A program made the position numbers and the translations under genes. From Candidatus Micrarchaeota archaeon (GTDB taxonomy: Archaea; Micrarchaeota; Micrarchaeia; Micrarchaeales; CABMGC01): a DNA stretch of 64,000 nt. Of the stretch, positions 790 through 47,704 are shown one piece after another; positions within the stretch are counted from its first letter, which is position 1; each line of letters begins with the position of its first letter. The notes beneath the pieces were generated by a model. It ran no database searches. It worked only from the letters and a program-made list of their open reading frames with translations, and was not told the DNA's origin. The stretch spans positions 9,544 to 73,543 of the forward strand of contig JAKAVK010000018.1 of NCBI GenBank assembly GCA_021817325.1, given 5' to 3'.

Positions 790-2426
790 TGGCAACGACA
801 AACGCGCTGACTGCGGAAGACATCTTCAAACAGTTCAAACAGTACTCTATATCCGAGTTCTTCAGGAAGAACAGCCAGATGTTGGGTTATGCCGGGAAGG
901 TTCGCTCCCTCACTACGATAGTCCACGAATACCTGACAAACTCAATAGATGCATGCGAGGAAGCAGGCATAATGCCTGAGATCGCCGTGGAGATAAACGA
1001 GATAGGAGAGAACAAGTACAAGGTTACTGTATCTGACAACGGGCCCGGCATACCTCAGAATATAGTTGGCAAGGCCCTTGCCACAATACTTGCGGGCACG
1101 AAGTTCCACAGGTATATGCAGCAGCGCGGCCAGCAGGGCATAGGCGCCACTGGGTGCACGCTCTTCTCAGCGATAACCACTGGCAAGCCAGTGCACGTGA
1201 GGGCCAGCACGGGCCGCAGCGCGTACGAGTGCGATGTTGCGCTGGATATAAAGTCCAACAAGCCGCTGCTCACGAATATTACAAGGTTGGAGCCCGACTT
1301 CAGAGGAACTGCAATAACTGGGGAGTTTGGCGAGGTAAAGTATGAGGCCAGCGATCACGGCGTGTACGAATACGTGAAGCGGACCGCGCTTACCAATCCG
1401 CATGCAACCATAAAGCTCAGGGCCCCTGACGGGCAGGAGCACGTCTTTCTCAGATCTGTGGAGGAGATGCCAAAGAGGCCAAAGCAGATAAAGCCGCACC
1501 CGCTTGGGGTAGGCACCAACGACTTAATAGAGTTTGCCCACAGGACGGAAAGCAAAAACCTGTCCTCTTTCCTTGCAGAGTCGTTCTCAAGGGTAAGCGA
1601 TGCCAAGGTGGCCGAGCTGAAGGGTCTCGTGGACCTTGATTTCGGAATGAGCCCAAAGGACTTGGCATGGGCCGATGCAGAGAAGCTGATCAAGGCATTC
1701 AAGCAGGTGAAGTGGATAGCGCCAGAGCTCGATTCCCTCTCAACGATAGGCGAGAGCCAGATCGAGCTTGCCACAAAGAACATACTCAATCCTGTATTCC
1801 TCAGCGTGGTGGAGCGCAAGCCACGGGTATTCAGTGGAGGCGTTCCGTTCGTCGTCGAGGCCTGCATAGCATACGGTGGAAATGCAGGCAAGCAGACAGA
1901 GAACGGACGTACAGGCACGGTGCTACGCTTCGCGAACAAAGTGCCGTTACTCTTCGACGGCTCGAGCTGCGCGATAAGCGAGGCAGTCAACGGCATACAG
2001 TGGAAGCGGTACGGCATAGGCAACTTCGACGAGGAGCCGGTCAGCGTGCTAGTAAACGTCTCCAGCGTGTATATACCTTATTCTGGGGTAGGCAAGCAGG
2101 CAATCGCACAGGAGGATGACATAATAGAGGAGATAAAGCTTGCGGTCATGGACTGCGGCAGGGCGCTGCAGCGCCATATCAGCGGGGTGAGAAACCAGAA
2201 CCTGCAGGAATCCAGATACAATACCGTAATGCGCTACGTAAAGCAGATGTCGCAGGACCTCTCCGACATAACCGGCATAAGCAACACTGAGATAGAGAAG
2301 TCCCTGAATTCCCTAATAGAATCCAGATACAAGAGGGTCGAAGCGGCAGCGCCAGAAGGATCCGAAGAGACCACCGACGTAGAGGAGGGCGAGGCGCCGC
2401 CATCCGACAGTGAATCAGAAGGTTAG
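789..2426 (+). CDS. top6B: DNA topoisomerase VI subunit B
   Basis: 545-aa ORF. Bergerat-fold GHKL ATPase motifs (EYLTNSIDACEE N-box, SDNGPGIP, GQQGIGATG), a long transducer region and an acidic C-terminal tail. Confidence 0.9.
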   Translation: MATTNALTAEDIFKQFKQYSISEFFRKNSQMLGYAGKVRSLTTIVHEYLTNSIDACEEAGIMPEIAVEINEIGENKYKVTVSDNGPGIPQNIVGKALATILAGTKFHRYMQQRGQQGIGATGCTLFSAITTGKPVHVRASTGRSAYECDVALDIKSNKPLLTNITRLEPDFRGTAITGEFGEVKYEASDHGVYEYVKRTALTNPHATIKLRAPDGQEHVFLRSVEEMPKRPKQIKPHPLGVGTNDLIEFAHRTESKNLSSFLAESFSRVSDAKVAELKGLVDLDFGMSPKDLAWADAEKLIKAFKQVKWIAPELDSLSTIGESQIELATKNILNPVFLSVVERKPRVFSGGVPFVVEACIAYGGNAGKQTENGRTGTVLRFANKVPLLFDGSSCAISEAVNGIQWKRYGIGNFDEEPVSVLVNVSSVYIPYSGVGKQAIAQEDDIIEEIKLAVMDCGRALQRHISGVRNQNLQESRYNTVMRYVKQMSQDLSDITGISNTEIEKSLNSLIESRYKRVEAAAPEGSEETTDVEEGEAPPSDSESEG

Positions 2427-4868
2427 CCTGCTGAGATCTCCTGTATCAAGAGGCACTATATACTGGTACTCTATGCCCACCTTCATGAGCTCGGCCTTCT
2501 CGCCATAAGATGTGTATAGCCTCTGTATGAAATCCAGGCGTGCTTGCTCATCAATGAAGACTATGAATATTTTGTACTGGCTGCCAAGTGCAACGTCCCT
2601 CATGCCATTAATGCTCGAATATATAATCACCTGCGCCTGCGACCCTTTCTTAGTTATTGTCATGTCGACGTTCCTATCGGAGTCCAACTCGGTAAACAGT
2701 ATGGCGTTTGCCACGCAGTAATCCCTGAGCTTTCTGAAGATTACAAGGTACTCGATATCATGCCCGGAAGAGTCGATCCACTTCCTTGGCGCGTAATATC
2801 CGCCAGCTGTGACAAGATCGCCTCTGTTTACCAGCGCCGTAAGTACGTTGAGCGTATTCTGCGTGGTTATAGAGATTGGCACGTTCTCATACCTGACGCT
2901 GCTGCCAATACCGCTTCTAACCTCTTCGACTGTCAGCGGCATAAGCCTCCAGTGGTAGTAATAGTTGACAGTATCAAATATGTTGACTACTGAGCCAGGA
3001 TTCGCCTTTAGCTTTATCTTGGCGGATGCCGGGAAGTTGGGCACGTCTACAAAGTAGTCATCTGATATCGGCGCTTTGAGTATGAGATTGAGCAAGACCA
3101 CCACGAAAACCCCTATCCCAAATTCAATGTACATTGGTGGTATGCTGTTTCCAGGGGGCTGGTAAGGCGCTGTATATGTATAATTCTCTCCGAAGATATT
3201 GAAGTCAAATGTCTTGTTGCCGTAGCTTATCGCAGTATGCGCTGGCAGGTCGTAGTTAAGCATACCATCCTGCACGGTTCCATTCTGCAGATACTGCCCG
3301 CCGATGCTTGCAATGTACTTGACGTTGTTCAATGTCTGGTTATTGCTTGTAACGTAGAAATCAAAATTGTCGTTTGCGAAGTCTATTGTCTGCGGGGTTA
3401 GGTTGACCGGCGCCATGTAGAAGAGCGATGTCGCATAAGTGCGCGAGGCGATATCCTTAAGCGACGCAACATAGTATCCCGGCGGCAGCGTGAAAGCCTG
3501 GTAGTAGAGTATGTCGAAACTCTTATTGTAGAAGCCCACCGGCACCGAAGCAAGAAGCGAATGGTTCTCATCATACAGCTCCAGATGGAACGACGTCTCA
3601 TGTGAAATGTTGCTGGCCTCCATGCGGATGGGCAACGTCTGCTCCTGGCCAAAGACTGCAGGCATCGAGAGCGTGCCCGCACCCTTGTAGCGCACCGCAA
3701 ATGGCACCAGCCTCTCATAGAACTGCGAAGCATTGGCGTTATACAGCTTGATGATTATAAGCCCGTGCGAGCCATTTACCATACTTGAAGCATTTTGCGT
3801 GTTATTCAGTGCAAGTGCGCTGGTGACCAGTGGCGCGATCCCAATGCTATTGGGGCTTAATGCATTCGTATCAAGAGGAATGCTGCTGTTCCCGTAAGCT
3901 ATCCTGTCCATCCAGAATCTGCTGTTCAGCGTGGTGGCTATGTCGCCTGCAAGCTGGCTCGCATTCTTCCATCCGACATTCGGGTAATTGCTGAATACTA
4001 GAAGGGTCCCGTTTGTATAATTTACCGCGCTCACATTGCCAAAATTGTCGTAGTACGGACCAAGGGGGGTATTGCCCTTCGCAAGCCAGAAGGTAGGCGA
4101 GTTGAAGGTGAGTTCGCTCGAGTTATACTGTGCACTATAGTTCTGCGACTCTGTCATATTGTGGCTAACAGGTACTTCGATTATAGAGGCTTCGCGCAGC
4201 AGGCTTAGCGAGTTTTGAGGGGTAACGAAGATCGTCTGCCCTGATCCAAGCTCGCTGGTAAAGTTCCTGCCGACATAGACTATCGTGTCTCCCCTCTTCA
4301 TCATATCCAATATTGTGAAGTTGCCGTTGCCAGGGTGCGGCCCTTCGTACAGCGAATCGGGCAGCAGGCCTACAGGCATTAGCCCTGAAGGTATGATGAC
4401 TACCGAATCGTTTGGTATCTCAGTCAGGTTGTCAATTCCGACATAGTTCATGCTGGTGCTGTTTATTATAAAGCCGTATCTCTTCAGGTTCTTATATAAG
4501 TCGTTGTACAGCTGCCCTCCTGAAAAGCAATCCAGGCAATAATTTATCAGTCCAACCTGCGTATTTACCAGATAGATCCTCGGTGCCGGAGGGGTTGTAT
4601 AGGCAGATATCGAGATATTTGCATCAGTGGCATTGGTAAAATAATAGTTTCCCAGTACGTAGTAGACCAGGCGGGTTGCCGAATCATCTACATATACGCT
4701 CGCATTGCTTATGGAGAACTGCGCTGAAATGCTCCCTGTTGGAAGGGCCGTGCTAACTAATGAGGGGAAGATCGAACGCACATAAAGAGCCAGGGATGCC
4801 CCCGCGCCTATCGCTATGACTATTATTACAAGTACCAGTTTCAGCAGCTTCGAAGATACCATGAGCAC
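2415..4868 (-). CDS. Large bitopic surface protein rich in N-glycosylation sequons, with cytoplasmic C-terminal domain; last gene of T4SS-like locus 1
   Basis: 817-aa ORF. N-terminal signal-anchor (LLKLVLVIIVIAIGAGASLALYV) and a roughly 560-aa ectodomain with about 28 N-x-S/T sequons by my count. Second TM (MYIEFGIGVFVVVLLNLIL), then a roughly 230-aa soluble tail. Follows the upstream minus-strand genes with short gaps. Its 3' end overlaps top6B convergently by 12 nt. Confidence 0.6.
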   Translation of the reverse strand: MLMVSSKLLKLVLVIIVIAIGAGASLALYVRSIFPSLVSTALPTGSISAQFSISNASVYVDDSATRLVYYVLGNYYFTNATDANISISAYTTPPAPRIYLVNTQVGLINYCLDCFSGGQLYNDLYKNLKRYGFIINSTSMNYVGIDNLTEIPNDSVVIIPSGLMPVGLLPDSLYEGPHPGNGNFTILDMMKRGDTIVYVGRNFTSELGSGQTIFVTPQNSLSLLREASIIEVPVSHNMTESQNYSAQYNSSELTFNSPTFWLAKGNTPLGPYYDNFGNVSAVNYTNGTLLVFSNYPNVGWKNASQLAGDIATTLNSRFWMDRIAYGNSSIPLDTNALSPNSIGIAPLVTSALALNNTQNASSMVNGSHGLIIIKLYNANASQFYERLVPFAVRYKGAGTLSMPAVFGQEQTLPIRMEASNISHETSFHLELYDENHSLLASVPVGFYNKSFDILYYQAFTLPPGYYVASLKDIASRTYATSLFYMAPVNLTPQTIDFANDNFDFYVTSNNQTLNNVKYIASIGGQYLQNGTVQDGMLNYDLPAHTAISYGNKTFDFNIFGENYTYTAPYQPPGNSIPPMYIEFGIGVFVVVLLNLILKAPISDDYFVDVPNFPASAKIKLKANPGSVVNIFDTVNYYYHWRLMPLTVEEVRSGIGSSVRYENVPISITTQNTLNVLTALVNRGDLVTAGGYYAPRKWIDSSGHDIEYLVIFRKLRDYCVANAILFTELDSDRNVDMTITKKGSQAQVIIYSSINGMRDVALGSQYKIFIVFIDEQARLDFIQRLYTSYGEKAELMKVGIEYQYIVPLDTGDLSRLTF

Positions 4869-5027: not shown

Positions 5028-5753
5028 TCATTCCTTCAGCTCGAGATAGCCCTGTGCTACCATCTTGTTGAGTATCTGCTCAACCCTGGGCTGTGATACA
5101 TTGTATGTCTTCGCGAAGTCGTCTATGTCTATCGTGCTGTTGTGCACCTGTATCCAATCGCCAACCATCGACATCAGCGATTCATCGGTAAACTTCTGCA
5201 GGGCCGCAAGGTCTGCCTTGAGTGATTTATTCTCCTCGTTGAGTTGTGCGGTCTGTATGGTGAGATTCCTGTTCGCCGTTGCGTACTCCAGATCCAGTTT
5301 CTTTACCTCTCTGTATTCGTTCAACAGAGAATCGTATTTGTTGAATAAGCTGCTGTATGTCTCTGTCATCCCAGAGAGCAGATTCTCAATGACCGAATCG
5401 ACATACTGGTAGAACTTGCCTGCATCTAGCGTATACTGGTCTGATATAATGGAGAGTACCGAGAGTACATCCTTGATTACTGTTGCCCTGCGCATCCTGT
5501 CGCTGGTATCCTGCGGTATCGAGTAAATCAGGCTTATGCCATCCTTCCTGAGCTTGATTATATAGAAAAGGTACGGCTTCTTGCTGATGTTCCTGCTCTC
5601 AACTTTGACTATGGATAGTTCGTTACCGGCCTGCTTCAGGTAGTAGAACGGTATCTGAGAAAGTTTGGATTTTATAATGTCAAGGCTTCCAGTCAGCCGT
5701 CCATCAAAAACAAGTTCATCGACTTTTGGGCTAAGTGCAACCTCATCTGGCAT
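5028..5753 (-). CDS. Coiled-coil protein with C-terminal winged-helix-like domain (locus-1 accessory; paralog of 48279..48956)
   Basis: 241-aa ORF. Central heptad-like region (LNEENKSLKADLAALQ) and C-terminal HTH-like FAKTYNVSQPRVEQILNKMVAQGYLELKE. Same architecture and several alignable blocks as the protein downstream of the second ATPase. Confidence 0.6.
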   Translation of the reverse strand: MPDEVALSPKVDELVFDGRLTGSLDIIKSKLSQIPFYYLKQAGNELSIVKVESRNISKKPYLFYIIKLRKDGISLIYSIPQDTSDRMRRATVIKDVLSVLSIISDQYTLDAGKFYQYVDSVIENLLSGMTETYSSLFNKYDSLLNEYREVKKLDLEYATANRNLTIQTAQLNEENKSLKADLAALQKFTDESLMSMVGDWIQVHNSTIDIDDFAKTYNVSQPRVEQILNKMVAQGYLELKE

Positions 5754-5868: not shown

Positions 5869-6285
5869 CTACCTTTTCGCTTCCTTGTCTCCCCGTATGG
5901 CTTGTACATCAAGATCCGGCATGTAGTTGAGCAGGGATAAGAGGTAGAGCAGCGCAAGCACGGGCAACGTGAATAAGAGCGTACCTACGCTTGCTATCAC
6001 AAGCCCCACAACCAGAAAGACAATGCCAAGGCCAACATATATTGCCATCCTGGATACGAACCTGCTCCTCTCTTTCTTGTATTTTGGGTAGCACTCCTTA
6101 CACACGACCAGCACATTGTTCTTCTCGTTCTTTGTTATGTTCGTCTTTATCCAGCGTATGGCGTGTATGACGTGGTCATTCCTAACCGGCAGGCCGACCC
6201 TCTCATTACCGCACACTATGCAGACTCTCTGCCTGCCTTTTTGATGCATTCCCGCAGCGCGTGTTTTGCCTCTAACCATATGCAC
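5869..6285 (-). CDS. Zinc-ribbon membrane protein
   Basis: 138-aa ORF. Two CxxC pairs (CIVCGN ... CKECYP) followed by two hydrophobic helices (MAIYVGLGIVFLVVGLVIASV, LLFTLPVLALLYLLSLL). Confidence 0.55.
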   Translation of the reverse strand: MHMVRGKTRAAGMHQKGRQRVCIVCGNERVGLPVRNDHVIHAIRWIKTNITKNEKNNVLVVCKECYPKYKKERSRFVSRMAIYVGLGIVFLVVGLVIASVGTLLFTLPVLALLYLLSLLNYMPDLDVQAIRGDKEAKR

Positions 6286-6292
6286 ACCATCC

Positions 6293-6589
6293 CTATTCGA
6301 TTACCAGCTCCACTATCTTGCCATAAGTGTCGCGTATCCTCTGCTCGTCTATCATGTTAAATACATTAGTAATAGTAACGTCGTCTATCCCTATCCTCCT
6401 CAGCACATTTGCTATGTCCTCGTGTTTCAGCCCCTTCCTCTCCAGCATGCTTACGAAGAGTATCGCATTGCAGTGCCTGTGCATCTTCTCAAGGGAATTC
6501 GAGAGATCGTCTATGCTCTTGTCATTCATTCGAAATGTGGAAAGCATCTTCCTGAGCTTTATCCTGCTTACCACGAACGTTCCGGCCAA
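6293..6589 (-). CDS. Small helical protein sharing a module with the C-termini of both T4SS-like ATPases
   Basis: 98-aa ORF starting 9 nt downstream of the ATPase stop. Segment LERKGLKHEDIANVLRRIGIDDVTITNVFNMI aligns with INQGIDKNTIVNFFRKIGILDSIISKVFNFI (ATPase-1 tail) and LHGASRKEMLRALRKTGIADADIADAFAFAI (ATPase-2 tail). Confidence 0.55.
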   Translation of the reverse strand: MAGTFVVSRIKLRKMLSTFRMNDKSIDDLSNSLEKMHRHCNAILFVSMLERKGLKHEDIANVLRRIGIDDVTITNVFNMIDEQRIRDTYGKIVELVIE

Positions 6590-6598: not shown

Positions 6599-8104
6599 CT
6601 ACGATATGAAGTTAAATACCTTAGATATTATGCTGTCCAGTATGCCTATCTTCCTGAAAAAGTTGACTATCGTATTTTTGTCTATTCCCTGGTTGATCAT
6701 TATCTGCGCCATATCCCTGATATCAACAATCCTGTCCTTCTTGTCAAGCTCCTTGAAGATCCTGAGTATGATGTCTGCGCTGATCTCGCTCTCTATAAGT
6801 TTAGCGTTAAGGTCTATCCTCTCAAAGTAGTACTCCTTCTTTATACTCTGGTCGGCCTGTTCGTTGGGGGCAAGCATCTCGGCCACGTTTATCGCATATA
6901 CGTCAAGCGGCTCCTCTCCTACTATCCTGTCAAGCAGAAAGATCTCCGGGAACTGTATCGAGGAGTTGAACGACATGTCGAACGCCGCCTGCCCGACTCC
7001 GAACTTGCTAATCTCCCTGCGTATGAAGCCTGAGAAGTTGAGCGATCCCTGCAAAAAGTTCATGAACTTCTCATACCTTATTCTCAGCATTACTGTAGTG
7101 CCAACGTTAGAGAAGATTGTCTCATTAATGTCTGTTGGATTCTGCGATGCTACAAGAAGGCCGAACTGGTACTTCCTGCCCTCCCTGACTATTGTTATCG
7201 CATCGCTCCTCTCGTCGCTTGCGACCTTCCACGCCTCATCCAGAACCACCAGCGTCTTTATCCCGCGGGTGCTGGACCATCCCTCCTGCCTCATCTTCTC
7301 CTTCAGCGTCTGCAGTATGAACATGGCCGCCAGTGCCCTGAATCTCTCATCAGGCAGGCTCGAGAGGTCCAGGTCGACGAGACCAGACTGGGCCAGCTTT
7401 CCTATATCTATTGTGGACTTCTTTGCAAAATAGTCCTCTCCCTCCCTTGTGAACTGCCTAATCCTGTATATGGCGTTCTCCAGTTCCGCCGGATATTCAT
7501 ATGTGCCCTCCTGTAGCTTCTCCTCAAGCAGCTTAGTCACATCCTTTAGGGTCGGCGATTCCGTATTCGGACCAGGTACGTCTGCCAGTGCAAATCCGGC
7601 ATTCACGTAGGCCTGCTCCATTGCCTCTGCGGTAAGCCGCCGTTGTTCTGGATACTGTCCTATGTCAGTTAGTATGTCAATTGAGTTCATGATCTGCTTT
7701 GCCCTGTCTATCGGCTTCATTCCAGAGAGGTCCATTATGTTTATGTAGTCCCCTTTCGAGAGCGCAATCACCTTTCCGCCGCTCTGTTTGACCCATGCCT
7801 TGTACTCTCCGGCCCAGTCTATTATTATGGCGTTCGTATTCCAGATGTAGCTGGCCCTGACAAGGAAGGTTTTTACGAAGAAGCTCTTTCCAGCGCCTGT
7901 TATGCCGACTACTGCCAGGTGCGGGTTGGTCAGGGTGGAATAGGTCCACGTAAAGGGCACTCCGAAGAGTTTGGTCACGCCTATGAATATCGAGTTTGTG
8001 GGATCGTTGAGCAGGTATTCCTGCGGCGGCTCCGGCGGCCTGCTCAGGAAGGTCCTCTTCGCAAGTTCGTTGCTCATCACATTCTGTACCCGCAGAAGTG
8101 TCAT
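6599..8104 (-). CDS. VirB4/HerA-superfamily P-loop ATPase (CedB/TedB-like), locus 1
   Basis: 501-aa ORF. Walker A GITGAGKSFF, Walker B LVVLDEAWKV (DEAW is typical of VirB4/TrbE/TraC) and REGRKYQFGLLVASQNP (HerA/DUF87-like block). No N-terminal TM or VirB4 N-domain in this polypeptide. Confidence 0.85.
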   Translation of the reverse strand: MTLLRVQNVMSNELAKRTFLSRPPEPPQEYLLNDPTNSIFIGVTKLFGVPFTWTYSTLTNPHLAVVGITGAGKSFFVKTFLVRASYIWNTNAIIIDWAGEYKAWVKQSGGKVIALSKGDYINIMDLSGMKPIDRAKQIMNSIDILTDIGQYPEQRRLTAEAMEQAYVNAGFALADVPGPNTESPTLKDVTKLLEEKLQEGTYEYPAELENAIYRIRQFTREGEDYFAKKSTIDIGKLAQSGLVDLDLSSLPDERFRALAAMFILQTLKEKMRQEGWSSTRGIKTLVVLDEAWKVASDERSDAITIVREGRKYQFGLLVASQNPTDINETIFSNVGTTVMLRIRYEKFMNFLQGSLNFSGFIRREISKFGVGQAAFDMSFNSSIQFPEIFLLDRIVGEEPLDVYAINVAEMLAPNEQADQSIKKEYYFERIDLNAKLIESEISADIILRIFKELDKKDRIVDIRDMAQIMINQGIDKNTIVNFFRKIGILDSIISKVFNFIS

Positions 8105-8136: not shown

Positions 8137-8964
8137 CTATTTCTGCCCCTTGAAGAGGCCCATTACGGAGCCTGCATCAAGCAGCCTGTAATTCAGCTTG
8201 TAGAGGAAGTACAGCTCCCTGCCTACGATCCTCTGTATGCTCAAGTCGAACGCATTGAATACTGTCTGGAGCTGGGTCATCTGTGTGTCTAGGATGTCAA
8301 GGGCCTCCTTCTCGCTGATCCCAACCGAAGTAGACTCTATGTATATGATGCTGTAGAGCGGCTTCTCCCCTTCCCCTATCTTGTTCATCTTCATTTCGAC
8401 CTGGCTAATCTTCTTCTGTATTTCCTGCATGTCAACTGGATTCTGCGTGGTTGCCTGCATCAGCCTTGACATCTGGAACTCGTAATAGCCCCTCTGGCCT
8501 TCAAGCTCGTCCCTGTACTTCTGTATGTCCTGTGCCATGCTTATTATGTTAAACTTGAATGGAAAGTCGACATTCATGACTATCTTCTCCCACTTGTCCG
8601 GTGCGGCAACCATCTCGCTCTCCACCTTCTCATCCGCCTTTTCGGCCTTGAACACGTAGCTGTACAGATTGCCTGTCAGGTAGCCTGTCGCATAGTACAG
8701 ACCGTTGACATACTTGACTACGGCCTGCTGCCCGTGAGCTATTGTATAGTTCTTTGCCGGCACTATGGTTATGCGCAGCATCTTTGTAAAAAGGGGGAAG
8801 ACCAGATAGTCTGCATAATTCATTATGAGCACCAGCAGGAGCGTAAGTATCCCAAGTACTATGACCACCAAGAGAAACGGTCCGAATGCGCTTCCATAAA
8901 CCATTAGCAGCAATACTATCACCAATGCGCATCCGAGAAACAATACCTCCTCCTGGTCAACCAT
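8137..8964 (-). CDS. 2-TM plus soluble-domain protein (family X, copy 1; possible VirB3/VirB4-N-domain analog)
   Basis: 275-aa ORF. Two N-terminal TM helices, then VNGLYYATGYL, a coiled-coil stretch and C-terminal FNAFDLSIQRIVGRELYFL. Alignable blocks shared with 8966..9838 and 50061..50786. Confidence 0.65.
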   Translation of the reverse strand: MVDQEEVLFLGCALVIVLLLMVYGSAFGPFLLVVIVLGILTLLLVLIMNYADYLVFPLFTKMLRITIVPAKNYTIAHGQQAVVKYVNGLYYATGYLTGNLYSYVFKAEKADEKVESEMVAAPDKWEKIVMNVDFPFKFNIISMAQDIQKYRDELEGQRGYYEFQMSRLMQATTQNPVDMQEIQKKISQVEMKMNKIGEGEKPLYSIIYIESTSVGISEKEALDILDTQMTQLQTVFNAFDLSIQRIVGRELYFLYKLNYRLLDAGSVMGLFKGQK

Positions 8965-8965
8965 A

Positions 8966-9838
8966 TCAAATCCCCTTGTCTATCGACTTTTCCCTCAGCC
9001 TTTCGCTCACGTTTGTTACTGGTATCATATAATCCGGGTCTATGAAGTACTGCAGTTCGCTGCCGCTTGCCACAGTTGCCGTTACGCCCAGCACGGCGCT
9101 TATTCCTGCTGCGAGCTCGTCAGCCCTTGCCATTGCAAGGTTTGCTGCCTCATCCTCGGTCGAGCCAAGCGCGCTGACCGAGGCATAAGTGATAAGCGCG
9201 TGCGATTTCGCCTTTCCGACACTGTCTAGCACGTTTCTCCACATGGTAACCTCACCGCGCACCCTCTCAGCCATAGAGGACTGTTCATTATCCTTGGCGT
9301 TTTTGCCTTCGGTAAGCTGCTTGTTCAGCACGGTATTATACCTGTCCTCTGCCTCATTTAGCTTCTTGCGCACGCTTTCCATGTACTGATCCTTGTTAAG
9401 CACATACAGCTGAGAGGTCAGCTTGACAGGCTGCTGGCTCAGCGAGATAACGCGTGCGAACATGCCTGCGAAGAGCGCCTTGTCCTCGTTCTCCATCTCG
9501 GTGGCGGAGACATATATAGGTATCTTTATAAAAGAGGTAGCGTAGATGCTCTGTCCCTCTCTCACCAAGATCGCGCTGCCAGACGGACTTATTGTATAGG
9601 GATCCTCATCGTCAAGTATAACCTGCCTGTGCTTCATCCTGATGAACGGTTCATACAGGTAGGTGTAGAACCTGGTGGAGAATGCCAGTACATCAAGTGT
9701 CAGTGCGATCAGTGCGAGGATAAATTTCAGTATGTAATAGCCGCCTATGGTGACTGCGCTAAGCACTATGGCAAGCGAGGCTCCCCATAAGACTATGAAG
9801 AACACGATCTTGAGATTCAAGGCCAACTGATCACGCAA
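8966..9838 (-). CDS. 2-TM plus soluble-domain protein (family X, copy 2)
   Basis: 290-aa ORF. Two N-terminal TM helices, EGQSIYATSFIKI, a coiled-coil region and C-terminal ISAVLGVTATVASGSELQYF. One nt separates its stop from the next start. Confidence 0.65.
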   Translation of the reverse strand: MRDQLALNLKIVFFIVLWGASLAIVLSAVTIGGYYILKFILALIALTLDVLAFSTRFYTYLYEPFIRMKHRQVILDDEDPYTISPSGSAILVREGQSIYATSFIKIPIYVSATEMENEDKALFAGMFARVISLSQQPVKLTSQLYVLNKDQYMESVRKKLNEAEDRYNTVLNKQLTEGKNAKDNEQSSMAERVRGEVTMWRNVLDSVGKAKSHALITYASVSALGSTEDEAANLAMARADELAAGISAVLGVTATVASGSELQYFIDPDYMIPVTNVSERLREKSIDKGI

Positions 9839-9877: not shown

Positions 9878-10999
9878 CTAGATTGCCCTGAACCTGCTGG
9901 AGGTCTGGCCCATGCCGCCTATGATGTTCGCTATCTGGACTACAAACGCATACGTTATGCCGCTGATCAGTGCCGGATAGAAGAGCACCGAGAGCCAGTA
10001 ACCGCTCAGGGCGCTCTTGGCATTCCCTATGTCCTCCACCAGCGGCGAGGTGGGCGATACTGCATTTGTGATCGCCCCTGATCCCGTCCCATATCTGTTG
10101 AGTGAGGCGCTTATCGCGCTCAGCGATGCGATAGGGCCCTGCGAAGTGAAATAGAACGCAACAGAGAAGAGTATCGGCATTATGAAGTAGAAGCCTATGC
10201 CTATCGCCATCATCATTCCGCCAAGCTGCCTTGTGGGCAAAAATGCCCTGAAGATAACACCAGGTATGAAGAAGGCCGGCAGTGCAGCATACATGAAGAA
10301 TAATATGGTATAGAACTCAACATTCAATGCCATGAAGCCTCCTATCGTCAGGTCAAAGAGTGCCCAGGTTGGCCAAAAGAAGCCGTACAGTACGGTCCAT
10401 TTGTATATGGGTGGGGCGAGGGCGGTGAGAAAGGTGCATTGGTCATCCACTTCCACGGCGCATACGAGCACCTGCTGCGAGGCGTAGAAATAATCAAGCG
10501 TGCCCATGTCGTACACCTGCAGCAGGACGCCGCTTGTGGCGTTTATCATGTGCGATATGTAGGTCAGCGAGGTACTGTACGGGTCTATGTTGCCAACGAA
10601 GTAGCTGGGTATCAGGCCGAACATGACTGCGGAGAGGAAGAGGAAGGCTACCACCATAAATGAGGTTGCGCTTGCCTCGTATATCTCACCGATGCCAAAG
10701 ATCCTTAGCCTGTCGTTCCTCAGTGCGACCCCGAACATGAAGATCAGAGCTCCTATCATAAAAGAGAGCATCGCCGCTGCCATGCCTATCGGCAGCCAGT
10801 TCTGCCAGATGGTCTCCGCAGCCACATTCATCTGGCTGCAGTACCAAGAGCTGGACGTAAGGGCATTGTAGGTATTCGAGTATACAATATCCTGTTTAGG
10901 GTATGCAGGGTTACAGTAGTTCTCAAGTATGCTGCCTGCAGCGTGCACTCTGGGGATGAGGAGAAGCAGGCACCCTAATACAAGCAGCAATCTCTTCAT
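9878..10999 (-). CDS. Polytopic membrane protein, paralog P6 (VirB6/CedA-like by context)
   Basis: 373-aa ORF. Signal peptide MKRLLLVLGCLLLLIPRVHAAG and N-module RNDRLRIFGIGEIYEA. Family motif PGVIFRAFLPTRQLGGMMMAIGIGFYFIMP. Confidence 0.7.
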   Translation of the reverse strand: MKRLLLVLGCLLLLIPRVHAAGSILENYCNPAYPKQDIVYSNTYNALTSSSWYCSQMNVAAETIWQNWLPIGMAAAMLSFMIGALIFMFGVALRNDRLRIFGIGEIYEASATSFMVVAFLFLSAVMFGLIPSYFVGNIDPYSTSLTYISHMINATSGVLLQVYDMGTLDYFYASQQVLVCAVEVDDQCTFLTALAPPIYKWTVLYGFFWPTWALFDLTIGGFMALNVEFYTILFFMYAALPAFFIPGVIFRAFLPTRQLGGMMMAIGIGFYFIMPILFSVAFYFTSQGPIASLSAISASLNRYGTGSGAITNAVSPTSPLVEDIGNAKSALSGYWLSVLFYPALISGITYAFVVQIANIIGGMGQTSSRFRAI

Positions 11000-11003
11000 A
11001 GCA

Positions 11004-12320
11004 TCACAGTATCCTTGTGAAAAGCGAGAGGAAGTCCATGCGCTCCCCCATGGCCCTCGAAAAATCCACTATAAATACATCAACGATAACTAAATTAAGC
11101 AGGGGTATGAAGGTCAGTCCTATCGCTACAAGTCCGCCGTATATCAAAAACGCGTTGATTATAGGAAACAGCGCGATAGGCAGCGAACCAAGCGTCAAGG
11201 CTCCGCCGACAAAGCCCCCGAGCGCAATTCCAATCATGCTGCCTAGCAATCCGGTAATCTGGTCGGTGGGAAATGCGCCGCAGCCTATGCCTCCTGGCGA
11301 AGGCCAGCCGAGTACACAGGTGAACTCCTGGCCTGCAACGGTAAGCGAGGAGTCAAGGAAGCCGTAGCTGATGGTCACCATTAGAGGATAGACGAATCCT
11401 ATCCCGATCGCAAACGCGATCATCGCATTGCCGAAGGTCCTGGTAACCCCGAATGCCCTAGCTATCAGCCCTATGGCCATGAAGATGGCGAATACTATGC
11501 CTGCTGAGGCGACCAGCAGCTCCTGCACCTGGCTGGCCACGAGCAAGATGTATATCGTATTCATGTACGGCACTATATAGAAGAAGACAGGTTCTATAGG
11601 GAGCAGGTCCAAGTTGTATGACACCCCGACATGACCGAAAGTGTAGTTCTGGAACCACGTTCCTATCCCCTGCAGGGCTCTGCCAGGGTAATTCTTATGT
11701 ATTGTCGGCGCTATGGCGCTTATTGCGGCTATCCAGTACAGCCCCTCGCTGAATGTATTAACGTTGTTGTTGAAGGTACGGTAGTCGCACAGTGAGATAA
11801 AGAAGAGGTTGTTGTAATCTGCATACTGGGTATTCGGGCCTGGAGAAGTTACCAGCGAGGGGTTTGGTGTCGGCGGCGCGTTAAGCTGCGTGTATCCATA
11901 GCACGAGTTAGGCAGGTACTGTATGCCTGATGGTCCTGTAACGCTGCCTATGCAGCCCGAAGATACTGTAGGCGGGCAGTCTGTAGGTATGAGGCCAACC
12001 GAGGCCAGCTGGTTGGCAGGCTGTATGGCAAAGATCGCCGCGCCAAACGCCGCAAACAGCATTATTAGGACTATGGTTGCAAGTTCATCGTATATCTTTA
12101 CCCTTACCCATGCCCGTATGTCATTTCTGCCAAGCGCAGGCGCAAGCGCGTATATGAGGGCGAGTATAACGATGACCATGGTTACGGCAGCCAGCACTAT
12201 CGGCAGCCATACGTCGCCAAACGGCGAGGTGATGATACCGCACAGTCCCGTGCACGCGACTGCCGCGGGACGGAGCAATCCGGCGAGTTTCAGTATGCCA
12301 AGCAGGAATAACACCATCAT
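11004..12320 (-). CDS. Polytopic membrane protein, paralog P5
   Basis: 438-aa ORF. N-module GRNDIRAWVRVKIYDEL, Cys-containing ectoloops and family motif IGLIARAFGVTRTFGNAMIAFAIGIGFVYP. 4-nt start/stop overlap with P4. Confidence 0.7.
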   Translation of the reverse strand: MMVLFLLGILKLAGLLRPAAVACTGLCGIITSPFGDVWLPIVLAAVTMVIVILALIYALAPALGRNDIRAWVRVKIYDELATIVLIMLFAAFGAAIFAIQPANQLASVGLIPTDCPPTVSSGCIGSVTGPSGIQYLPNSCYGYTQLNAPPTPNPSLVTSPGPNTQYADYNNLFFISLCDYRTFNNNVNTFSEGLYWIAAISAIAPTIHKNYPGRALQGIGTWFQNYTFGHVGVSYNLDLLPIEPVFFYIVPYMNTIYILLVASQVQELLVASAGIVFAIFMAIGLIARAFGVTRTFGNAMIAFAIGIGFVYPLMVTISYGFLDSSLTVAGQEFTCVLGWPSPGGIGCGAFPTDQITGLLGSMIGIALGGFVGGALTLGSLPIALFPIINAFLIYGGLVAIGLTFIPLLNLVIVDVFIVDFSRAMGERMDFLSLFTRIL

Positions 12321-13639
12321 ATCACCTTGCTAAGTAGTCTGTTGCTGCGCAGCGAAGGCGAGCCCAGCAAACCGCCAAGCGCCTCCAGCAGATCAAATGA
12401 TATTATGAACGCAATCACTATGCCAACGATCTCTATGATCGAGCCCGAGATATCGCTTGTAAATGTGGAAACGTTATCGTACATCGCGGACCCGAAGCCT
12501 GAAATGTCGACTACATCCAAAATGCCGCTTAAGGTGGACCATGCCTGGTTGCCAAGCTTCTGCGTGATGCTATCCACCGATGAACATACGGTGGGGCTTG
12601 ACGTGGCAGAGCTTCCGATATAAACCCCTCCTCCTCCATATGTGCTAACGTCGGTTTTATAGGCAGCCTGCGTGCCTGCGTATACCTTCACTGTGCCGCT
12701 GCCGCTTGTGAAATCATAATATCCCGGGCCGATCCAACCAACCTGGCTAGTGCTGCATATGTAGTTGACTGTGCCTGTGAGCTCCCCGGAGAAGGGATAG
12801 ACAAGGGCAGGGAAGACGACATAGAACGATATGAAGAGCGCCAGCATTGCCCCACCGGCAGCCCGCGTCCACGGGAAGGAGCGCAGCACAATACCCACAT
12901 AAAAGAAGACAGGGAAGAGGAAGTATATGACGAAAAGGAACATGACCAGAAGGCCGCCCATGCCCAGCAGGCCGAATGAGATGCCCTCCTCGCTCCACAG
13001 GGCCGTTTTAAGGGTCTGTATTCCGCCCCAAGGGCTGAACGATATGCCGAAATCGTTTGGCATGAGCTGCACCGAGAACGACACTAGTGCGTTGAATATG
13101 AAGAGGTTGGTGAAGACATAGCCGTAGTCTAAGAGATTGGTGGTTATCATCCCATTCTCCAGGTTGGTGCACGTCGCTATGAAGACGCCCTGCGAGGAGG
13201 TGAACGTCGAAGTGGGTGGCGCGGGAAGCAGTGTATTGGCGAGATGGGCCAGGAAGACCACCGAACCATCGAATATCCCAAGGCCGCCAACGAATATGAA
13301 CACGATCAGCAGGTTGGCGAAGCTCTCAAGGTACTCGTTCTTGACAAATGTGACAAGCTTCTGTATATTGAATGCAACACCTATCGCGTACACGATGCCA
13401 AGAACCGAGAGCACCATGAATACGATGAAGAGGGAAAGCTCCAGGAATACCTTGTACGTCGACGCGTCTGAGAGGGCGGTGTTTACAAGCGGAGTATATC
13501 CGGGAGACGTGGCTCCGTTAGTGAATAGGCTGTTGCAGTTGAACAGCGTTGCGGTAGGGAGGGAGGCCGCGCCTGCGAAATGCGGGATAAGGAAGAAGGC
13601 GAAAAGGCCCAGAAGCAGCATCCTAACAATAGGCATCAT
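12317..13639 (-). CDS. Polytopic membrane protein, paralog P4
   Basis: 440-aa ORF. Signal peptide MMPIVRMLLLGLFAFFLIPHFAGA and family motif VGIVLRSFPWTRAAGGAMLALFISFYVVFP. 4-nt overlaps at both ends. Confidence 0.7.
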   Translation of the reverse strand: MMPIVRMLLLGLFAFFLIPHFAGAASLPTATLFNCNSLFTNGATSPGYTPLVNTALSDASTYKVFLELSLFIVFMVLSVLGIVYAIGVAFNIQKLVTFVKNEYLESFANLLIVFIFVGGLGIFDGSVVFLAHLANTLLPAPPTSTFTSSQGVFIATCTNLENGMITTNLLDYGYVFTNLFIFNALVSFSVQLMPNDFGISFSPWGGIQTLKTALWSEEGISFGLLGMGGLLVMFLFVIYFLFPVFFYVGIVLRSFPWTRAAGGAMLALFISFYVVFPALVYPFSGELTGTVNYICSTSQVGWIGPGYYDFTSGSGTVKVYAGTQAAYKTDVSTYGGGGVYIGSSATSSPTVCSSVDSITQKLGNQAWSTLSGILDVVDISGFGSAMYDNVSTFTSDISGSIIEIVGIVIAFIISFDLLEALGGLLGSPSLRSNRLLSKVI

Positions 13640-15231
13640 ATGAATCTAGCCAGTCCAAGTATATACGTGTCTCCGCCAAGCATTGCGGATAAGCCAAGCA
13701 GTGCGGATATTGATAGCAGGACATTGAGCAGCGGTATCACGAAGCCGGCAACAGAGATTACTCCGTATGCGTTTATGATCTGGAAATCTGCCTTTGCCAT
13801 GTACGTAGGCTCAAAGCAGCGGTAATAACCTGCCAGGGCAGCCTGCGGCAAGGTGCTTGGGATCGCGGTTGTCTGGCTCAGCAGTCCGCTCAGGAAGCCG
13901 AACCCTCCTGTTGCTATGCCAAAGAAAGGTATGAGATATCGCGACGAATAGGCAATCTCCTCATTTACCAGGCTGCCTCCAGGTGGCCAGCATCCCCAGT
14001 AATTCATTATCTGGTCCACCCTGGGCATGGAGTAGAAACTGAGTTGGTAGGTGGTCATGGCCAGGCACTGCTGCATGCCTAGGGGCGAGCCTGCAGAGCA
14101 TGTGCTTGCAGGGTATGGCAGCTCGCATGGGCTGCCGGAGCCCTTGACCAGCATGCCATAGTTGTCGTACAACGGCAACTGGCAGATGGCCATGTTCGGT
14201 ATGGAGGTTGTGCCTATAGGATTTAGGCAGTTGGCGTTTGTGTTAAGAGGGCCGCAGCTTCCCGGACTCAGCGTATCGTATTCGAATATGATCAGCATCG
14301 GGTAGATTATCACGCTTGCAAGCACAAGCGCGATTAGAAAGCCTCCTATTCTCCTTGTGAAGAAGGTGACCCGCAGTATAATTCCAGCGGCAAGAAGGTA
14401 TGGCCACATGTAGATCATCATCAGTATGCCTACGGTCTGCAGGAAGAAGAGATAGAAGATCATGGTGTTGAGTATCTCTACGACGGGCAGTACGGACCTC
14501 TGGTACACGTACGCTGTGAATGGCGAGTACTCGTATGTGATACTAAGCAGCCTCTCTCCATAGAGTGGTATTGCACACTCCACAGGTATGCAAAACGTGG
14601 TTGTAGAAGTGAACGACCTGAGCCAGCCTGCCGTGCCCTCGAAGAAGTAGAGCGAATTAAGGTTGGCTGCGGTCTGGTTGGTCATGTTTGCTGCCAACAG
14701 ATAGGCGGCTCCAAGCCCATAGTCCACGTCGCTTGTAATGTGCGTGCCTCCAAGGCTGCCAGAGCCTATGACCTGCGTGCATATGATGTTGGTTGGGCTT
14801 GGCACGCCGCTAGGCGAGACGTACACGCTGTTTGACCAGTCAAGCGCGGATCCTGCCAGATACGGCCCCGTGCACATCCCCTGGAATGTGGATTTCTGCG
14901 CCAGGAAACTAGGCAGTGCAATGCCGTTCCAGAAGGTGAGAAAGCCCATAATGAGCACCACTATGAAGGCCGTGGCTACCACCTGCGTCATCTCGCTGAC
15001 TGCGCTCGCCTTCGCCCTCGAGCTGCCTGCTGCAGCCCCTGCCATGTACCAGAGCCCTACAAGAAGTATGCTCAGCGATATGGCAGCGAAAACGACAGGC
15101 AGCCAGTTTGTGAAGTTCGAATAGTTTGTCTCGATATTAGCTGCGCCAGCCGCGCCTGCAATAAGCGCAAGTACCGCTACCGAGAGGATGGCTGTCGCCA
15201 GAGATTTCCGGATAACGTCCCTTTTCATCAT
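13636..15231 (-). CDS. Polytopic membrane protein, paralog P3 (largest, Cys-rich ectoloops)
   Basis: 531-aa ORF. Signal peptide ...LALIAGAAGAAN and family motif AAGIILRVTFFTRRIGGFLIALVLASVIIYP. Long Cys-rich insert (CGPLNTNANCLNP, CELPYPASTCSAGSPLGMQQC). Confidence 0.7.
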   Translation of the reverse strand: MMKRDVIRKSLATAILSVAVLALIAGAAGAANIETNYSNFTNWLPVVFAAISLSILLVGLWYMAGAAAGSSRAKASAVSEMTQVVATAFIVVLIMGFLTFWNGIALPSFLAQKSTFQGMCTGPYLAGSALDWSNSVYVSPSGVPSPTNIICTQVIGSGSLGGTHITSDVDYGLGAAYLLAANMTNQTAANLNSLYFFEGTAGWLRSFTSTTTFCIPVECAIPLYGERLLSITYEYSPFTAYVYQRSVLPVVEILNTMIFYLFFLQTVGILMMIYMWPYLLAAGIILRVTFFTRRIGGFLIALVLASVIIYPMLIIFEYDTLSPGSCGPLNTNANCLNPIGTTSIPNMAICQLPLYDNYGMLVKGSGSPCELPYPASTCSAGSPLGMQQCLAMTTYQLSFYSMPRVDQIMNYWGCWPPGGSLVNEEIAYSSRYLIPFFGIATGGFGFLSGLLSQTTAIPSTLPQAALAGYYRCFEPTYMAKADFQIINAYGVISVAGFVIPLLNVLLSISALLGLSAMLGGDTYILGLARFI

Positions 15232-16520
15232 ATATTGCCCCAGAACGGTCCTGTGCCTATAAGCGTAGAGATGGAACCAAGCCCCTTGGTAAGGCCCTGT
15301 GCGAAGCCTATCGTTATCGCCAGGTCAAGTGCTATAAGAACTATTGATTCGAACATATACTCTGCTATCTTCACCCCAAAGCCGTCTATCACATATGGCA
15401 TTGAATAAAGAGTCTGTACGCCAGTAACGAGGAACTGGCTAAGGCCCCCTGTCCCGCTGCTGACCCCTAGCGGCGAGAAGGGAAGCTGCAGTCCTGGATT
15501 GAGATAGTTCTGCCCGCCATTGGGCAGCGCCGAGTTTTGGGGTACCGTCACCACGTTGGTTGGCACCCCAGAGAAATAGCTGTTGGTCTGCAGGTTGTTG
15601 AGAAGGTCAGGATATACAAATGAGGCGTAAGGATTGCACGCGCCTACCGTTGTTACCGGCCCTGTGCCTGCCCAGGGGTTTCCACTACAGAACATCCAGC
15701 TGATTATAAAGCTATTCATGGATATGGCAAGCGGCAATATGAAGAAGAAGGCTATGGCTATTGCGAGTATCGAGTCCGCAGCCTCCCGCAGGCGCGGCCC
15801 GCCAAACGGTAGGGTCCTGATTATCAGTGCTGTGGGCAGCATCGCAGTCAGCGCGAAAGACTGGATAACAGGGAGCAGGATCCACATCACGAAAAGCACC
15901 GCAAACGTGATGACAATAAGCCCAGTATATGTGCTTGTGAGTACGCCGCTGTATCCATAGTACACTCCCACAAGGTTGGTGTTCAGTTGCAAATCACTTG
16001 TCAGCGATATCGGAACCTCGAAGGCCGATGCGAGCTGCTCGTCGATGTTGCCCCAGAGCAGGAAGAGCGCGCTCTCAGCGTACATCTGGCCGAAGAGCTG
16101 CGAGCTCCTCTCGTACAGAAGGTTGCTTATATACGTCTGCGCATACTGCATCGGGTCAGAATATACAACGCCTGTGGTGGCGGTTGCTGACTTGGTCAGG
16201 AAAATACCGACATTGCACGTAACCGCCGCAAAGGCGGTCACCGCCATTATTATGAAGATGCTCAAAAAGGCTTGCGTGGCCTCTGTCTTAGCTGCACCTT
16301 TCAGCTTCTCCCTTGATATTGTAGGGAGAAAGCCTGCAAGGGTATAAACCAGCGAGGCGATCACCACTGCGGCAAGCACAAGGAAGACATTGATGGTTAT
16401 CCAGTTGTTGCTGTTTATCGCAGGGAAGGTACAGGCCTGCTGGTATGCCGTCGTGCCCGCAGCGTATACCCCTACCGAGAAGAGGGCCATTACAACAAGC
16501 ACGATTGTTGCTTTTCTCAT
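15228..16520 (-). CDS. Polytopic membrane protein, paralog P2 (most divergent motif)
   Basis: 430-aa ORF. Signal peptide MRKATIVLVVMALFSVGVYAAG and motif variant TALIIRTLPFGGPRLREAADSILAIAIAFFFILP. 4-nt overlap with P3. Confidence 0.65.
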   Translation of the reverse strand: MRKATIVLVVMALFSVGVYAAGTTAYQQACTFPAINSNNWITINVFLVLAAVVIASLVYTLAGFLPTISREKLKGAAKTEATQAFLSIFIIMAVTAFAAVTCNVGIFLTKSATATTGVVYSDPMQYAQTYISNLLYERSSQLFGQMYAESALFLLWGNIDEQLASAFEVPISLTSDLQLNTNLVGVYYGYSGVLTSTYTGLIVITFAVLFVMWILLPVIQSFALTAMLPTALIIRTLPFGGPRLREAADSILAIAIAFFFILPLAISMNSFIISWMFCSGNPWAGTGPVTTVGACNPYASFVYPDLLNNLQTNSYFSGVPTNVVTVPQNSALPNGGQNYLNPGLQLPFSPLGVSSGTGGLSQFLVTGVQTLYSMPYVIDGFGVKIAEYMFESIVLIALDLAITIGFAQGLTKGLGSISTLIGTGPFWGNI

Positions 16521-16526
16521 TTAATA

Positions 16527-18652: not shown

Positions 18653-19030
18653 TCAGCAGCCTGCAGGTATCGAAGCAATTCCCGAAGTGCCTGAACCTGC
18701 GCTGCTGATTATAATATTTATCAGCCCAGGAGCGATGAGCACAAGTATTATGCCCACTATGCCTCCTATTATCATGCCTATGGACCATCCCTGCAGGTTG
18801 CCTCTCATATTGCCTGCTGCGGGCAGCAGGTGCGCCAGGGCGTAGAGCACTGCACCGACTATGAAGAGCAGCAGCGCTATGTAAGCAACGAAGCTGCGTA
18901 CCACCTGGACGATGGAGCAGATTGAGCTTGTAATCGGGGTTGCGGTTGCAGCATATGCAGTCATGCTGCCGGTTAGCATCAGCAGCATCGCACCATATGC
19001 TATAACCCTTGCTCTGCCAATCATAATCAT
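18653..19030 (-). CDS. VirB2/TrbC/CedA1-like pilin, copy B
   Basis: Start chosen at MIMIGRAR, giving 125 aa. Signal-like N-terminus ending AYAATA, then helix 1 ICSIVQVVRSFVAYIALLLFIVGAVLYALAHLL. Basic loop PAAGNMRGNLQGW, helix 2 SIGMIIGGIVGIILVLIAPGLINII, Gly/Ser tail ending AGC. Two-helix hairpin layout of T4SS pilins. Confidence 0.7.
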   Translation of the reverse strand: MIMIGRARVIAYGAMLLMLTGSMTAYAATATPITSSICSIVQVVRSFVAYIALLLFIVGAVLYALAHLLPAAGNMRGNLQGWSIGMIIGGIVGIILVLIAPGLINIIISSAGSGTSGIASIPAGC

Positions 19031-19084
19031 ATACTCCACTTTGAAACTTATAAAGCAATCCCTAAGATCAGGTTTGTAAACGAA

Positions 19085-19145
19085 ATAAAGGAAAAGAAAG
19101 ATAAATAAAAGAAAGAAAAAGGCAGGATGCGCTATGCACCCTGCC
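19085..19145 (-). terminator. Hairpin plus T-tract between pilin A and pilin B (putative partial terminator)
   Basis: On the minus strand, GGCAGGGTGCATAGCGCATCCTGCC (about 10-bp stem) starts 16 nt after the pilin A stop. It is followed by TTTTTCTTTCTTTTATTTATCTTTCTTTTCC; oligo-T tracts terminate archaeal transcription. Confidence 0.5.
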
Positions 19146-19160
19146 AACCAAGCTATCTGT

Positions 19161-47508: not shown

Positions 47509-47704
47509 CATAATATGCGAGGTAGATGTAAGCTGCGCACGATATGAAGAAGAGCACTGTAAAGCCTACTGCTTTCCCGTCCAGTTTATCAAGGAACTCA
47601 GATCCTATGAAGGCCTTGTTCACCAGCACAATGTCGAGCAGCACCATTGACGCAATGGCGCTTGCCACGAGCAGCTTGTGCACTATTCCGACAATCACCT
47701 GCAT
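47495..47704 (-). CDS. Small 2-TM membrane protein (last gene of T4SS-like locus 2)
   Basis: 69-aa ORF with two hydrophobic helices. 10-nt overlap with the upstream gene. Confidence 0.45.
   Translation of the reverse strand: MQVIVGIVHKLLVASAIASMVLLDIVLVNKAFIGSEFLDKLDGKAVGFTVLFFISCAAYIYLAYYAMMF

Follow-up and report, generated by a model that had tools for sequence, protein, structure and literature searches.

The window analyzed in this work, a stretch of 64,000 nucleotides (nt) from Candidatus Micrarchaeota contig JAKAVK010000018.1, encodes in two separate loci three small membrane proteins, here called par1, par2, and par3, which are probably the membrane-anchored N-terminal module of VirB4, encoded by genes of their own just upstream of motor ATPases that consist of the RecA-like domain only. 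We favor a split VirB4 because VirB4 heads the fold searches, the profile alignments are consistent in register, the products tile VirB4, and an unfused gene order is conserved. The original prediction, made from the sequence alone, held that the VirB4 N-module is detached from its motor and duplicated in locus 1, and it linked the same proteins to VirB3. The first part is largely supported by the fold searches, register, tiling, and synteny, while for the VirB3 part no sequence signal was found, as described below. To our knowledge, no ATPase other than VirB4 is shared by all type IV secretion and conjugation systems, and VirB4 normally occurs as one polypeptide or fused with VirB3. Full-text literature searches returned neither a type IV secretion system (T4SS) or Ced-like locus in Micrarchaeota nor a naturally split VirB4, and, as far as the literature was searched, the Micrarchaeota locus is an undescribed variant of the Ced/Ted/T4SS kind.

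In locus 1, par1 (8137 to 8964, minus strand; 275 amino acids [aa], ATG start) lies directly upstream of the motor gene ATPase1, from which it is separated by a 32-nt spacer. It is preceded by par2 (8966 to 9838, minus strand; 290 aa, TTG start), which has the same architecture, with 1 nt between the par2 stop codon and the par1 ATG. The third paralog, par3 (50061 to 50786, minus strand; 241 aa), belongs to the compact four-gene locus 2, where its stop codon, TGA, shares bases with the ATG of ATPase2 in an ATGA (50064-50061), an arrangement that suggests translational coupling. A six-frame scan of the window found exactly these three par members and two ATPases. The lengths of par1 and par2 are matched by exact or near-exact database proteins, and the homologs of par3 measure 236 to 243 aa.

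Pairwise BLASTP among the paralogs gave weak similarity (E values of 2e-4 and 2e-5) and no match between par2 and par3. Profile comparison with hhalign joined the par1 and par2 families (95.9%; E value of 5.8e-9; 227 columns), and a par3-type profile, length-selected at 230 to 250 aa from the representative protein search described below, matched the other two paralogs at E values of 8e-24 and 1e-21. Judged by these profiles, par1, par2, and par3 are true paralogs, with a similarity far beyond chance. The coordinates, lengths, and relatedness that had been read from the two adjacent open reading frames (ORFs) and the distant third one are thus all confirmed, and the motifs proposed to be shared among them (VNGLYYATGYL, EGQSIYATSFI, and VGNTYYGVSIA, plus a C-terminal G.EL block) are present and occupy the same alignment columns. 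Each protein carries an N-terminal transmembrane (TM) hairpin, at about aa 10 to 50 in par1, in which two hydrophobic helices are connected by an uncharged loop of 3 to 6 residues, followed by an alpha/beta domain of about 210 aa with a helical hairpin. The AlphaFold2 (AF2) models show the same succession, in which the TM hairpin is followed by a beta-rich block, the helical hairpin, and, at the C terminus, an alpha/beta part. K/R residues follow TM2, and, together with the tight two-helix hairpin, they suggest that the large domain faces the cytoplasm; the topology of the hairpin is likely N-in/C-in.

Both motors lack the part that the par proteins may supply. ATPase1 (6599 to 8104, minus strand; 501 aa) is a VirB4/CedB-like P-loop ATPase comprising the C-terminal RecA-like domain only, with a small helical domain of about 100 aa at its end and the Walker A motif GITGAGKS at residues 67 to 74. 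Both a TM segment and an N-domain are lacking, and the earlier remark that the motor begins about 60 aa before its Walker A without either of them was correct, as the family matches also cover C-terminal halves only. ATPase2 (48943 to 50064, minus strand) is a VirB4/CedB-like ATPase equally devoid of an N-domain. Its ORF as listed starts at a TTG at 50112, encodes 389 aa, and overlaps par3 by 52 nt. This ORF is probably 16 codons too long, and the ATG at 50064 is preferred as the true start because of the ATGA overlap with the par3 stop codon and a better fit to the N termini of the orthologs, which are just 270 to 285 aa long.

Both ATPases match DUF87, AAA_10, and P-loop_TraG in Pfam. In NCBIfam, they match VirB4-like models over the C-terminal halves only (CD1110, 393-694 of 752; CedB, 252-536 of 590; TraC, 427-743 of 800; VirB4_CagE, 423-700 of 792), with all scores below the family cutoffs. 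Matches to the CedB and CedD models (E values of 1e-17 to 5e-19; 63 to 68 bits against cutoffs of 600 to 700) cover the ATPase part only, and the single chain of those proteins was not found here, the N-module being a separate protein. Nine VirB4 proteins from conjugative plasmids of archaea, aligned with one another, gave the same picture. With hhalign, residues 37 to 345 of ATPase1 correspond to 293-576 of the pHGQ25 VirB4 (E value of 7.8e-18), and residues 50 to 270 of ATPase2, in the 389-aa numbering from the TTG, correspond to 292-605 (E value of 2.2e-22). A hidden Markov model (HMM) of this alignment gave matches in the window within HMM positions 282-600 only, with ATPase1 at 283-569. 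Directly downstream of ATPase1, a 98-aa ORF (6293 to 6589, minus strand) resembles the last ~75 residues of the same ATPase (aa 425 to 500, at about 6602-6830; BLASTP E value of 2.8e-4, HMM E value of 1.2e-6). On this similarity, it looks like the small helical C-terminal domain of ATPase1 duplicated as a stand-alone gene, and a gene of 98 to 99 aa is kept at this position in the loci L083 and L084.

The fold searches pointed to VirB4. AF2 models were built from separate alignments for par1 (41 sequences; mean predicted local distance difference test score [pLDDT] of 73.8) and par2 (46 sequences; pLDDT of 82.4) and searched with Foldseek against 350,542 PDB chains, the top 50 matches being examined for each. 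The best match of the par1 model was 7o42_A, the TrwK/VirB4 of R388 (E value of 0.021, probability of 0.99, 171 columns), and its top 4 matches were all TrwK/VirB4. The par2 model had the same best match (7o42_A; E value of 0.0078, probability of 0.99), with TrwK chains accounting for 8 of its 13 top matches. HerA, FtsK, TrwB, and the VirB4 structure containing the C-terminal domain only (4ag5) were all missing from the top 50 of both searches. This absence, taken with the placement of the hhalign alignments, argues that the structural match is probably to the VirB4-specific N-domain rather than to the P-loop core. On these predicted models, the par proteins may be counted as having the fold of the solved VirB4 N-domain. 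The idea that they represent a missing HAS-barrel domain of HerA was rejected, since neither model is a beta-barrel and the fold matches include no HerA, although the PDB contains many HerA structures.

Profile-profile alignments led to the same region of VirB4. A superfamily alignment of 126 par sequences was compared through hhalign with two VirB4 alignments, the archaeal one introduced above and one of 24 non-redundant TrwK relatives taken from genome loci. Against the archaeal VirB4, par1 residues 136 to 231 aligned with pHGQ25 151-235, inside the N-domain (P of 0.022), and the par1-only and par3-type profiles returned the same region (P of 0.027 and 0.016, respectively). Indeed, all alignments of par profiles with the archaeal VirB4 fell within the N-domain columns ~150 to 270. 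Against the TrwK family, par1 132-210 aligned with TrwK 266-330, which falls inside Pfam PF03135 (TrwK 178-382) and also inside the N-domain of TrwK/VirB4, which comprises residues 15 to 400 according to Mace et al. (PMC9259494). The two VirB4 alignments are themselves strongly related (E value of 4.8e-21), and through the archaeal VirB4 the par region corresponds to TrwK ~270-358. The route from par1 to pHGQ25 and on to TrwK agrees within one residue with the direct par1-to-TrwK alignment at 33 of 49 shared positions. Among 100 block-shuffled or reversed decoys, the real score was reached by 1 in the case of the archaeal VirB4 (z of ~3.1) and by 15 in the case of TrwK. The sequence evidence for a VirB4 N-domain is therefore marginal yet self-consistent, and it singles out the region that the fold search also indicates. 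At that marginal level, the par domain would correspond roughly to the latter half of the N-domain of VirB4, with two VirB4 families agreeing in register.

Seen along the archaeal VirB4, the par domain would cover ~150 to 270, and the ATPase starts at 293, so that the two gene products tile VirB4 in its native order. This order is widely conserved as adjacent genes. A HMMER search with a three-family profile against 1.84 billion representative proteins recovered 242 clusters (50% identity) at an E value of ≤1e-3, and the full-length members among the best 150 of these are stand-alone proteins of about 235 to 280 aa, none of them fused to an ATPase. Homologs of par1 make up about 190 clusters of 273 to 277 aa from Micrarchaeota. 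Nearly every source name among the homologs is Candidatus Micrarchaeota or Micrarchaeia; a few metagenome-assembled genomes are labeled Marsarchaeota or Saccharimonadales. In addition, 80 metagenome loci were found with the par1 alignment. Where enough sequence was available, the ATPase gene lies directly downstream of par1 in 44 of 51 loci, with a projected gap of 5 to 207 nt, and at a distance of 1.4 kilobases (kb) in 3 more. A par2-type gene is directly upstream of par1 in 56 of 60 loci. In the three loci with the longer distance (L141, L147, and L149), the ~1.4 kb inserted between par1 and the ATPase gene amounts to roughly one gene.

A fused version of the two proteins, the search for which had been suggested together with the original prediction, occurs in none of the 80 loci. 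N-domain and ATPase were never found in one chain, par being always a separate ORF, and the native order is kept at the level of the genes. L083 and L084 repeat the whole order of locus 1, with a gene of 243 to 303 aa, six polytopic genes, par2, par1, and a 501-aa ATPase, whose length is thus the same as in the window. After the ATPase, they continue with genes of 98 to 99, 118 to 124, 245 to 246, ~50, and 781 to 791 aa, and a gene for topoisomerase VI subunit B follows on the opposite strand. The par3-ATPase order is kept in L085 and L086, where the cassette of the locus-2 type stands among housekeeping genes and consists of a small membrane protein (130 aa), a polytopic protein (351 aa), par3 (236 aa), and the ATPase (270 to 285 aa). 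Since the contigs reach 853 kb and the locus adjoins topoisomerase VI subunit B in several genomes, it is chromosomal, and it is conserved across Micrarchaeota.

Several observations weigh against a VirB4 origin of the par proteins. At the sequence level, Pfam, including PF03135, gave no match at an E value of ≤1 for the three par proteins and none at ≤10 for 41 family members, NCBIfam gave none for the par proteins, and the family profile found no VirB4 among the PDB sequences. These searches of the par proteins and 41 relatives returned noise only (coiled-coil families, ACT_5, and BUD31), and the archaeal VirB4 HMM did not match the par ORFs either. The profile-profile P values against the archaeal VirB4 are only ~0.02, the par2-only profile is weaker (P of 0.1), the TrwK alignment reaches just 0.18, and the subfamily profiles give scattered, inconsistent, and nonsignificant alignments with TrwK. 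The Foldseek E values are modest, the query-normalized template-modeling scores (TM-scores) are 0.26 to 0.33, and the root mean square deviation for par2 is 11.6 Å; the assignment of this match to the N-domain leans on hhalign and on the lack of any other P-loop ATPase among the matches; and, as par1 and par2 are homologs, their models are replicates of the modeling and not independent tests of the fold. Compared with ~385 aa for the N-domain of TrwK, the par domain is about half as large (~210 aa). As for gene order, the ATPase is absent from the available flank in 4 of the 51 loci. L001 and L002 (8001-8825 and flanks, on an 853-kb Micrarchaeota contig) contain the polytopic series together with par2 and par1, but a convergent gene comes after par1, with no ATPase within 8 kb downstream.

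The uniformly negative sequence-to-profile searches, the marginal hhalign P values with their inconsistent TrwK subfamily results, the low TM-scores, and the lack of any fused relative among the best 150 of 242 clusters or the 80 loci are also what would be seen if the par proteins were unrelated, lineage-specific, membrane-tethered coiled-coil adaptors or scaffolds. Such proteins may still bind the ATPase, their likeness to the VirB4 N-domain would be convergent, and no fission of VirB4 would have taken place. We regard this explanation as unlikely, because VirB4 tops the whole set of PDB chains for both models, the weak alignments to two VirB4 families share their register, the real score against the archaeal VirB4 was equaled by a single decoy, and the par gene is located exactly where the missing N-domain belongs in the native domain order.

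A second alternative takes its strength from the position of small membrane-anchored proteins between a channel-like gene and an ATPase. VirB3 and VirB8 homologs can occupy this position in bacterial operons, and the par proteins might then be the counterparts of another bitopic inner-membrane component of the T4SS (VirB8/PrgL, VirB10, or VirB3/PrgI alone). This is very improbable. VirB8 and VirB10 domains are extracytoplasmic, whereas the hairpin puts the large par domain beside the N terminus, likely in the cytoplasm, and the single TM segment with an extracytoplasmic NTF2-like domain that defines VirB8/PrgL contrasts with the two TM helices of the par proteins. An assignment to VirB8 or VirB10 had been named in advance as an outcome that would speak against a VirB4 N-domain, and neither fold search had a VirB8 (NTF2-like) or VirB10 structure among its 50 best matches. 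VirB3 is a protein of ~100 aa without a 210-aa domain. No Pfam match to VirB3 or VirB8 was obtained; PF05101 (VirB3) matched neither the par proteins nor their family members, whereas TrwM, used as a positive control, matched at 7e-23. Comparison of the par TM region and family with TrwM through hhalign gave no meaningful alignment (P of 0.21), although with a single target the power of this test is low. The two-TM anchor is thus present and resembles VirB3 by position and topology, an architectural likeness without a claim of homology. Lastly, the adjacency of the ORFs is all that would speak for a frameshifted full-length VirB4/CedB gene, that is, a pseudogene or an assembly or annotation artifact, and the comparative data exclude it: ORF sizes are constant (273 to 277 aa and ~501 aa), intergenic spacers of 5 to 207 nt recur in dozens of independent assemblies, no fusion exists in 80 loci, and the full-length cluster members are stand-alone.

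Among known systems, a VirB4 split into N-module and motor is best compared with TrwK/VirB4 and TrwM/VirB3 of R388, which provide the best structural match of both models, with the aligned region assigned to the N-domain, and with the window ATPases corresponding to the VirB4 C-terminal domain. The arrangement of two anchoring TM helices before the presumed N-domain parallels VirB3 and VirB3-VirB4 fusions. The N-domain of the R388 protein mediates the contacts of VirB4 dimers (central and outside) and binds VirB3 (PMC9259494). Unlike in TrwK, the N-module and motor are separate here, the N-module is ~210 instead of ~385 aa, two diverged N-modules accompany one motor, and no sequence similarity to the bacterial PF03135 or PF05101 families is detectable. 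The best profile-profile evidence comes from the VirB4-like proteins of archaeal conjugative plasmids (TrbE/TraC-like; pNOB8, pING1, pHGQ25, and Thermococcus nautili pT33-3), in which par would match N-domain residues ~151-235 and the window ATPases match ~292-605. These plasmid-borne proteins differ in being single chains of ~620 to 670 aa without a TM segment.

The archaeal Ced and Ted systems contain VirB2-, VirB6-, and VirB4-like parts (PMC9905601). CedB and CedD combine a TM region, a VirB4-like N-domain, and an ATPase, and VirB3 and VirB8 have been reported to be absent from archaea (PMC11868833). Like the Micrarchaeota locus, these systems (CedB, CedD, and TedB) are archaeal and chromosomal, they derive from a T4SS, as the locus probably does, and CedB and CedD form a paralog pair (PMC11868833, PMC9905601). 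In Ced, a crenarchaeal system for DNA import, the whole single-chain protein is duplicated, whereas in this DPANN host the module of TM segments and N-domain alone is duplicated and detached; the presumed likeness to the CedB/CedD N-domain follows from the published architecture. A further parallel is found in Patescibacteria (candidate phyla radiation [CPR]), whose T4SS of the mating-pair formation FATA type (MPF-FATA) has been reported as essential for epibiotic growth (PMC12102498). Like the Micrarchaeota locus with its candidate pilins, this system is T4SS-like and chromosomal, and it provides an ultrasmall episymbiont with VirB2-like pilins; however, it is bacterial and has a full-length VirB4 and separate VirB3 (PrgI) homologs, and neither VirB3-VirB4 fusions nor splits have been reported for it (PMC12102498).

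The genes around the par and ATPase genes are compatible with such an apparatus. Directly upstream of par2, a polytopic membrane protein of 373 aa (9878 to 10999, minus strand) is recognized from its TM profile and is, by position only, a candidate VirB6/CedA-like channel. Five further polytopic membrane proteins (438, 440, 531, 430, and 419 aa; 11004 to 17786, minus strand) form one operon with the par genes. All-against-all BLASTP and the TM profile indicate that the six proteins (9878-17786) are paralogs with a shared conserved core, and the six-gene series recurs in L083, L084, and L001. None of the polytopic proteins has a Pfam match, and comparison of the family with TrwI/VirB6 by hhalign gave no signal, with a single target and low power. 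Their likeness to VirB6 is limited to position and topology. Multiple VirB6 paralogs are known from Rickettsiales, which the six-protein series recalls.

Locus 2 repeats the arrangement in a shorter form. Its polytopic membrane protein (50791 to 51840, minus strand; 349 aa) is a paralog of the locus-1 series (BLASTP E value of 1.3e-7 with the 373-aa protein) and has a 351-aa ortholog in L085 and L086. It is preceded by a small membrane protein of 128 aa (51845 to 52231, minus strand), a candidate VirB2/TrbC-like pilin, which matches the Pfam TrbC/VIRB2 family below its cutoff (E value of 5.9e-5; 23.6 bits against 27.9) and T4SS_pilin at an E value of 0.028; its ortholog in L085 has a weak TrbC match too. 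Candidate VirB2/TrbC-like pilins of locus 1 are two tandem ORFs for small membrane proteins (18653-19147 and 19161-19541, minus strand), which are 65% identical by BLASTP and match Pfam TrbC over nearly the whole model (E values of 0.02 and 0.012). These ORFs have no equivalent at that position in L083 or L084, and the pilin evidence consists, in all, of sub-threshold TrbC/VirB2 matches on four small membrane proteins. No homolog of VirB8 to VirB11 or VirD4 was recognized in the loci. The locus is best described as a probable Ced/Ted-like, T4SS-derived apparatus in which the ATPase is clearly VirB4/CedB-like, the pilin is sub-threshold, and the channel is assigned by position and topology.

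In the mechanism that we propose, the TM hairpin would hold the ~210-aa domain at the cytoplasmic face of the membrane, and the N-modules may dock the ATPase ring noncovalently beneath a VirB6/CedA-like polytopic channel, a contact that we infer. The N-modules would mediate N-domain-to-N-domain contacts and would thus replace both VirB3 and a covalent N-domain. The ATPase would power the extraction of pilins and/or the translocation of a substrate, probably DNA, through an apparatus of the Ced/Ted type that has VirB2-like pilins. The two diverged N-modules of locus 1, par2 and par1, would share one ATPase and might form a heteromer resembling the central/outside dimer of VirB4 or the CedB/CedD pair. 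Locus 2 would be a minimal four-gene cassette of pilin, channel, N-module, and motor. A broader proposal, which we put forward tentatively as a possibility, is that Micrarchaeota, which are DPANN episymbionts, possess a conserved chromosomal machine derived from a T4SS, in which fission of VirB4 produced two obligate N-module paralogs and a free motor. Together with six VirB6-like channels and VirB2-like pilins, this machine could be a conduit for the exchange of DNA or other macromolecules with a Thermoplasmatales host, a counterpart of the T4SS on which Patescibacteria depend.

If the split of VirB4 is real, a natural separation of N-domain and motor throughout a phylum would provide a ready-made system for dissecting, genetically and biochemically, the roles of the N-domain in membrane docking, VirB6 contact, and dimerization. 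It would also widen the range of domesticated archaeal T4SS of the Ced/Ted type from Crenarchaeota to DPANN archaea and provide Micrarchaeota with a candidate machine for cell-to-cell transfer. The split would further explain why automated annotation shows just a "DUF87 ATPase" amid hypothetical proteins.

The remaining neighbors in both loci were also surveyed. After ATPase2, two ORFs of 270 and 195 aa (48279-49091 and 47695-48282, minus strand) have no family matches and are absent from the cassette of L085 and L086; there, the next gene encodes an M50 peptidase and lies on the opposite strand. The operon of locus 1 is closed by an 817-aa protein (2415-4868, minus strand) with an N-terminal TM helix, a second one at aa ~575 to 603, and many N-x-S/T sequons, features that make a glycosylated surface protein probable; neither Pfam nor NCBIfam gave a match, and genes of 781 to 791 aa take its place in L083 and L084. 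Proteins of 241 and 138 aa (5028-5753 and 5869-6285, minus strand) are further conserved members of this operon. The former has a coiled coil and a winged-helix-like C-terminal end, with weak PCI and MarR matches, and the latter combines a zinc-ribbon-like N-terminal part (weak DUF2116 match) with a C-terminal TM region.

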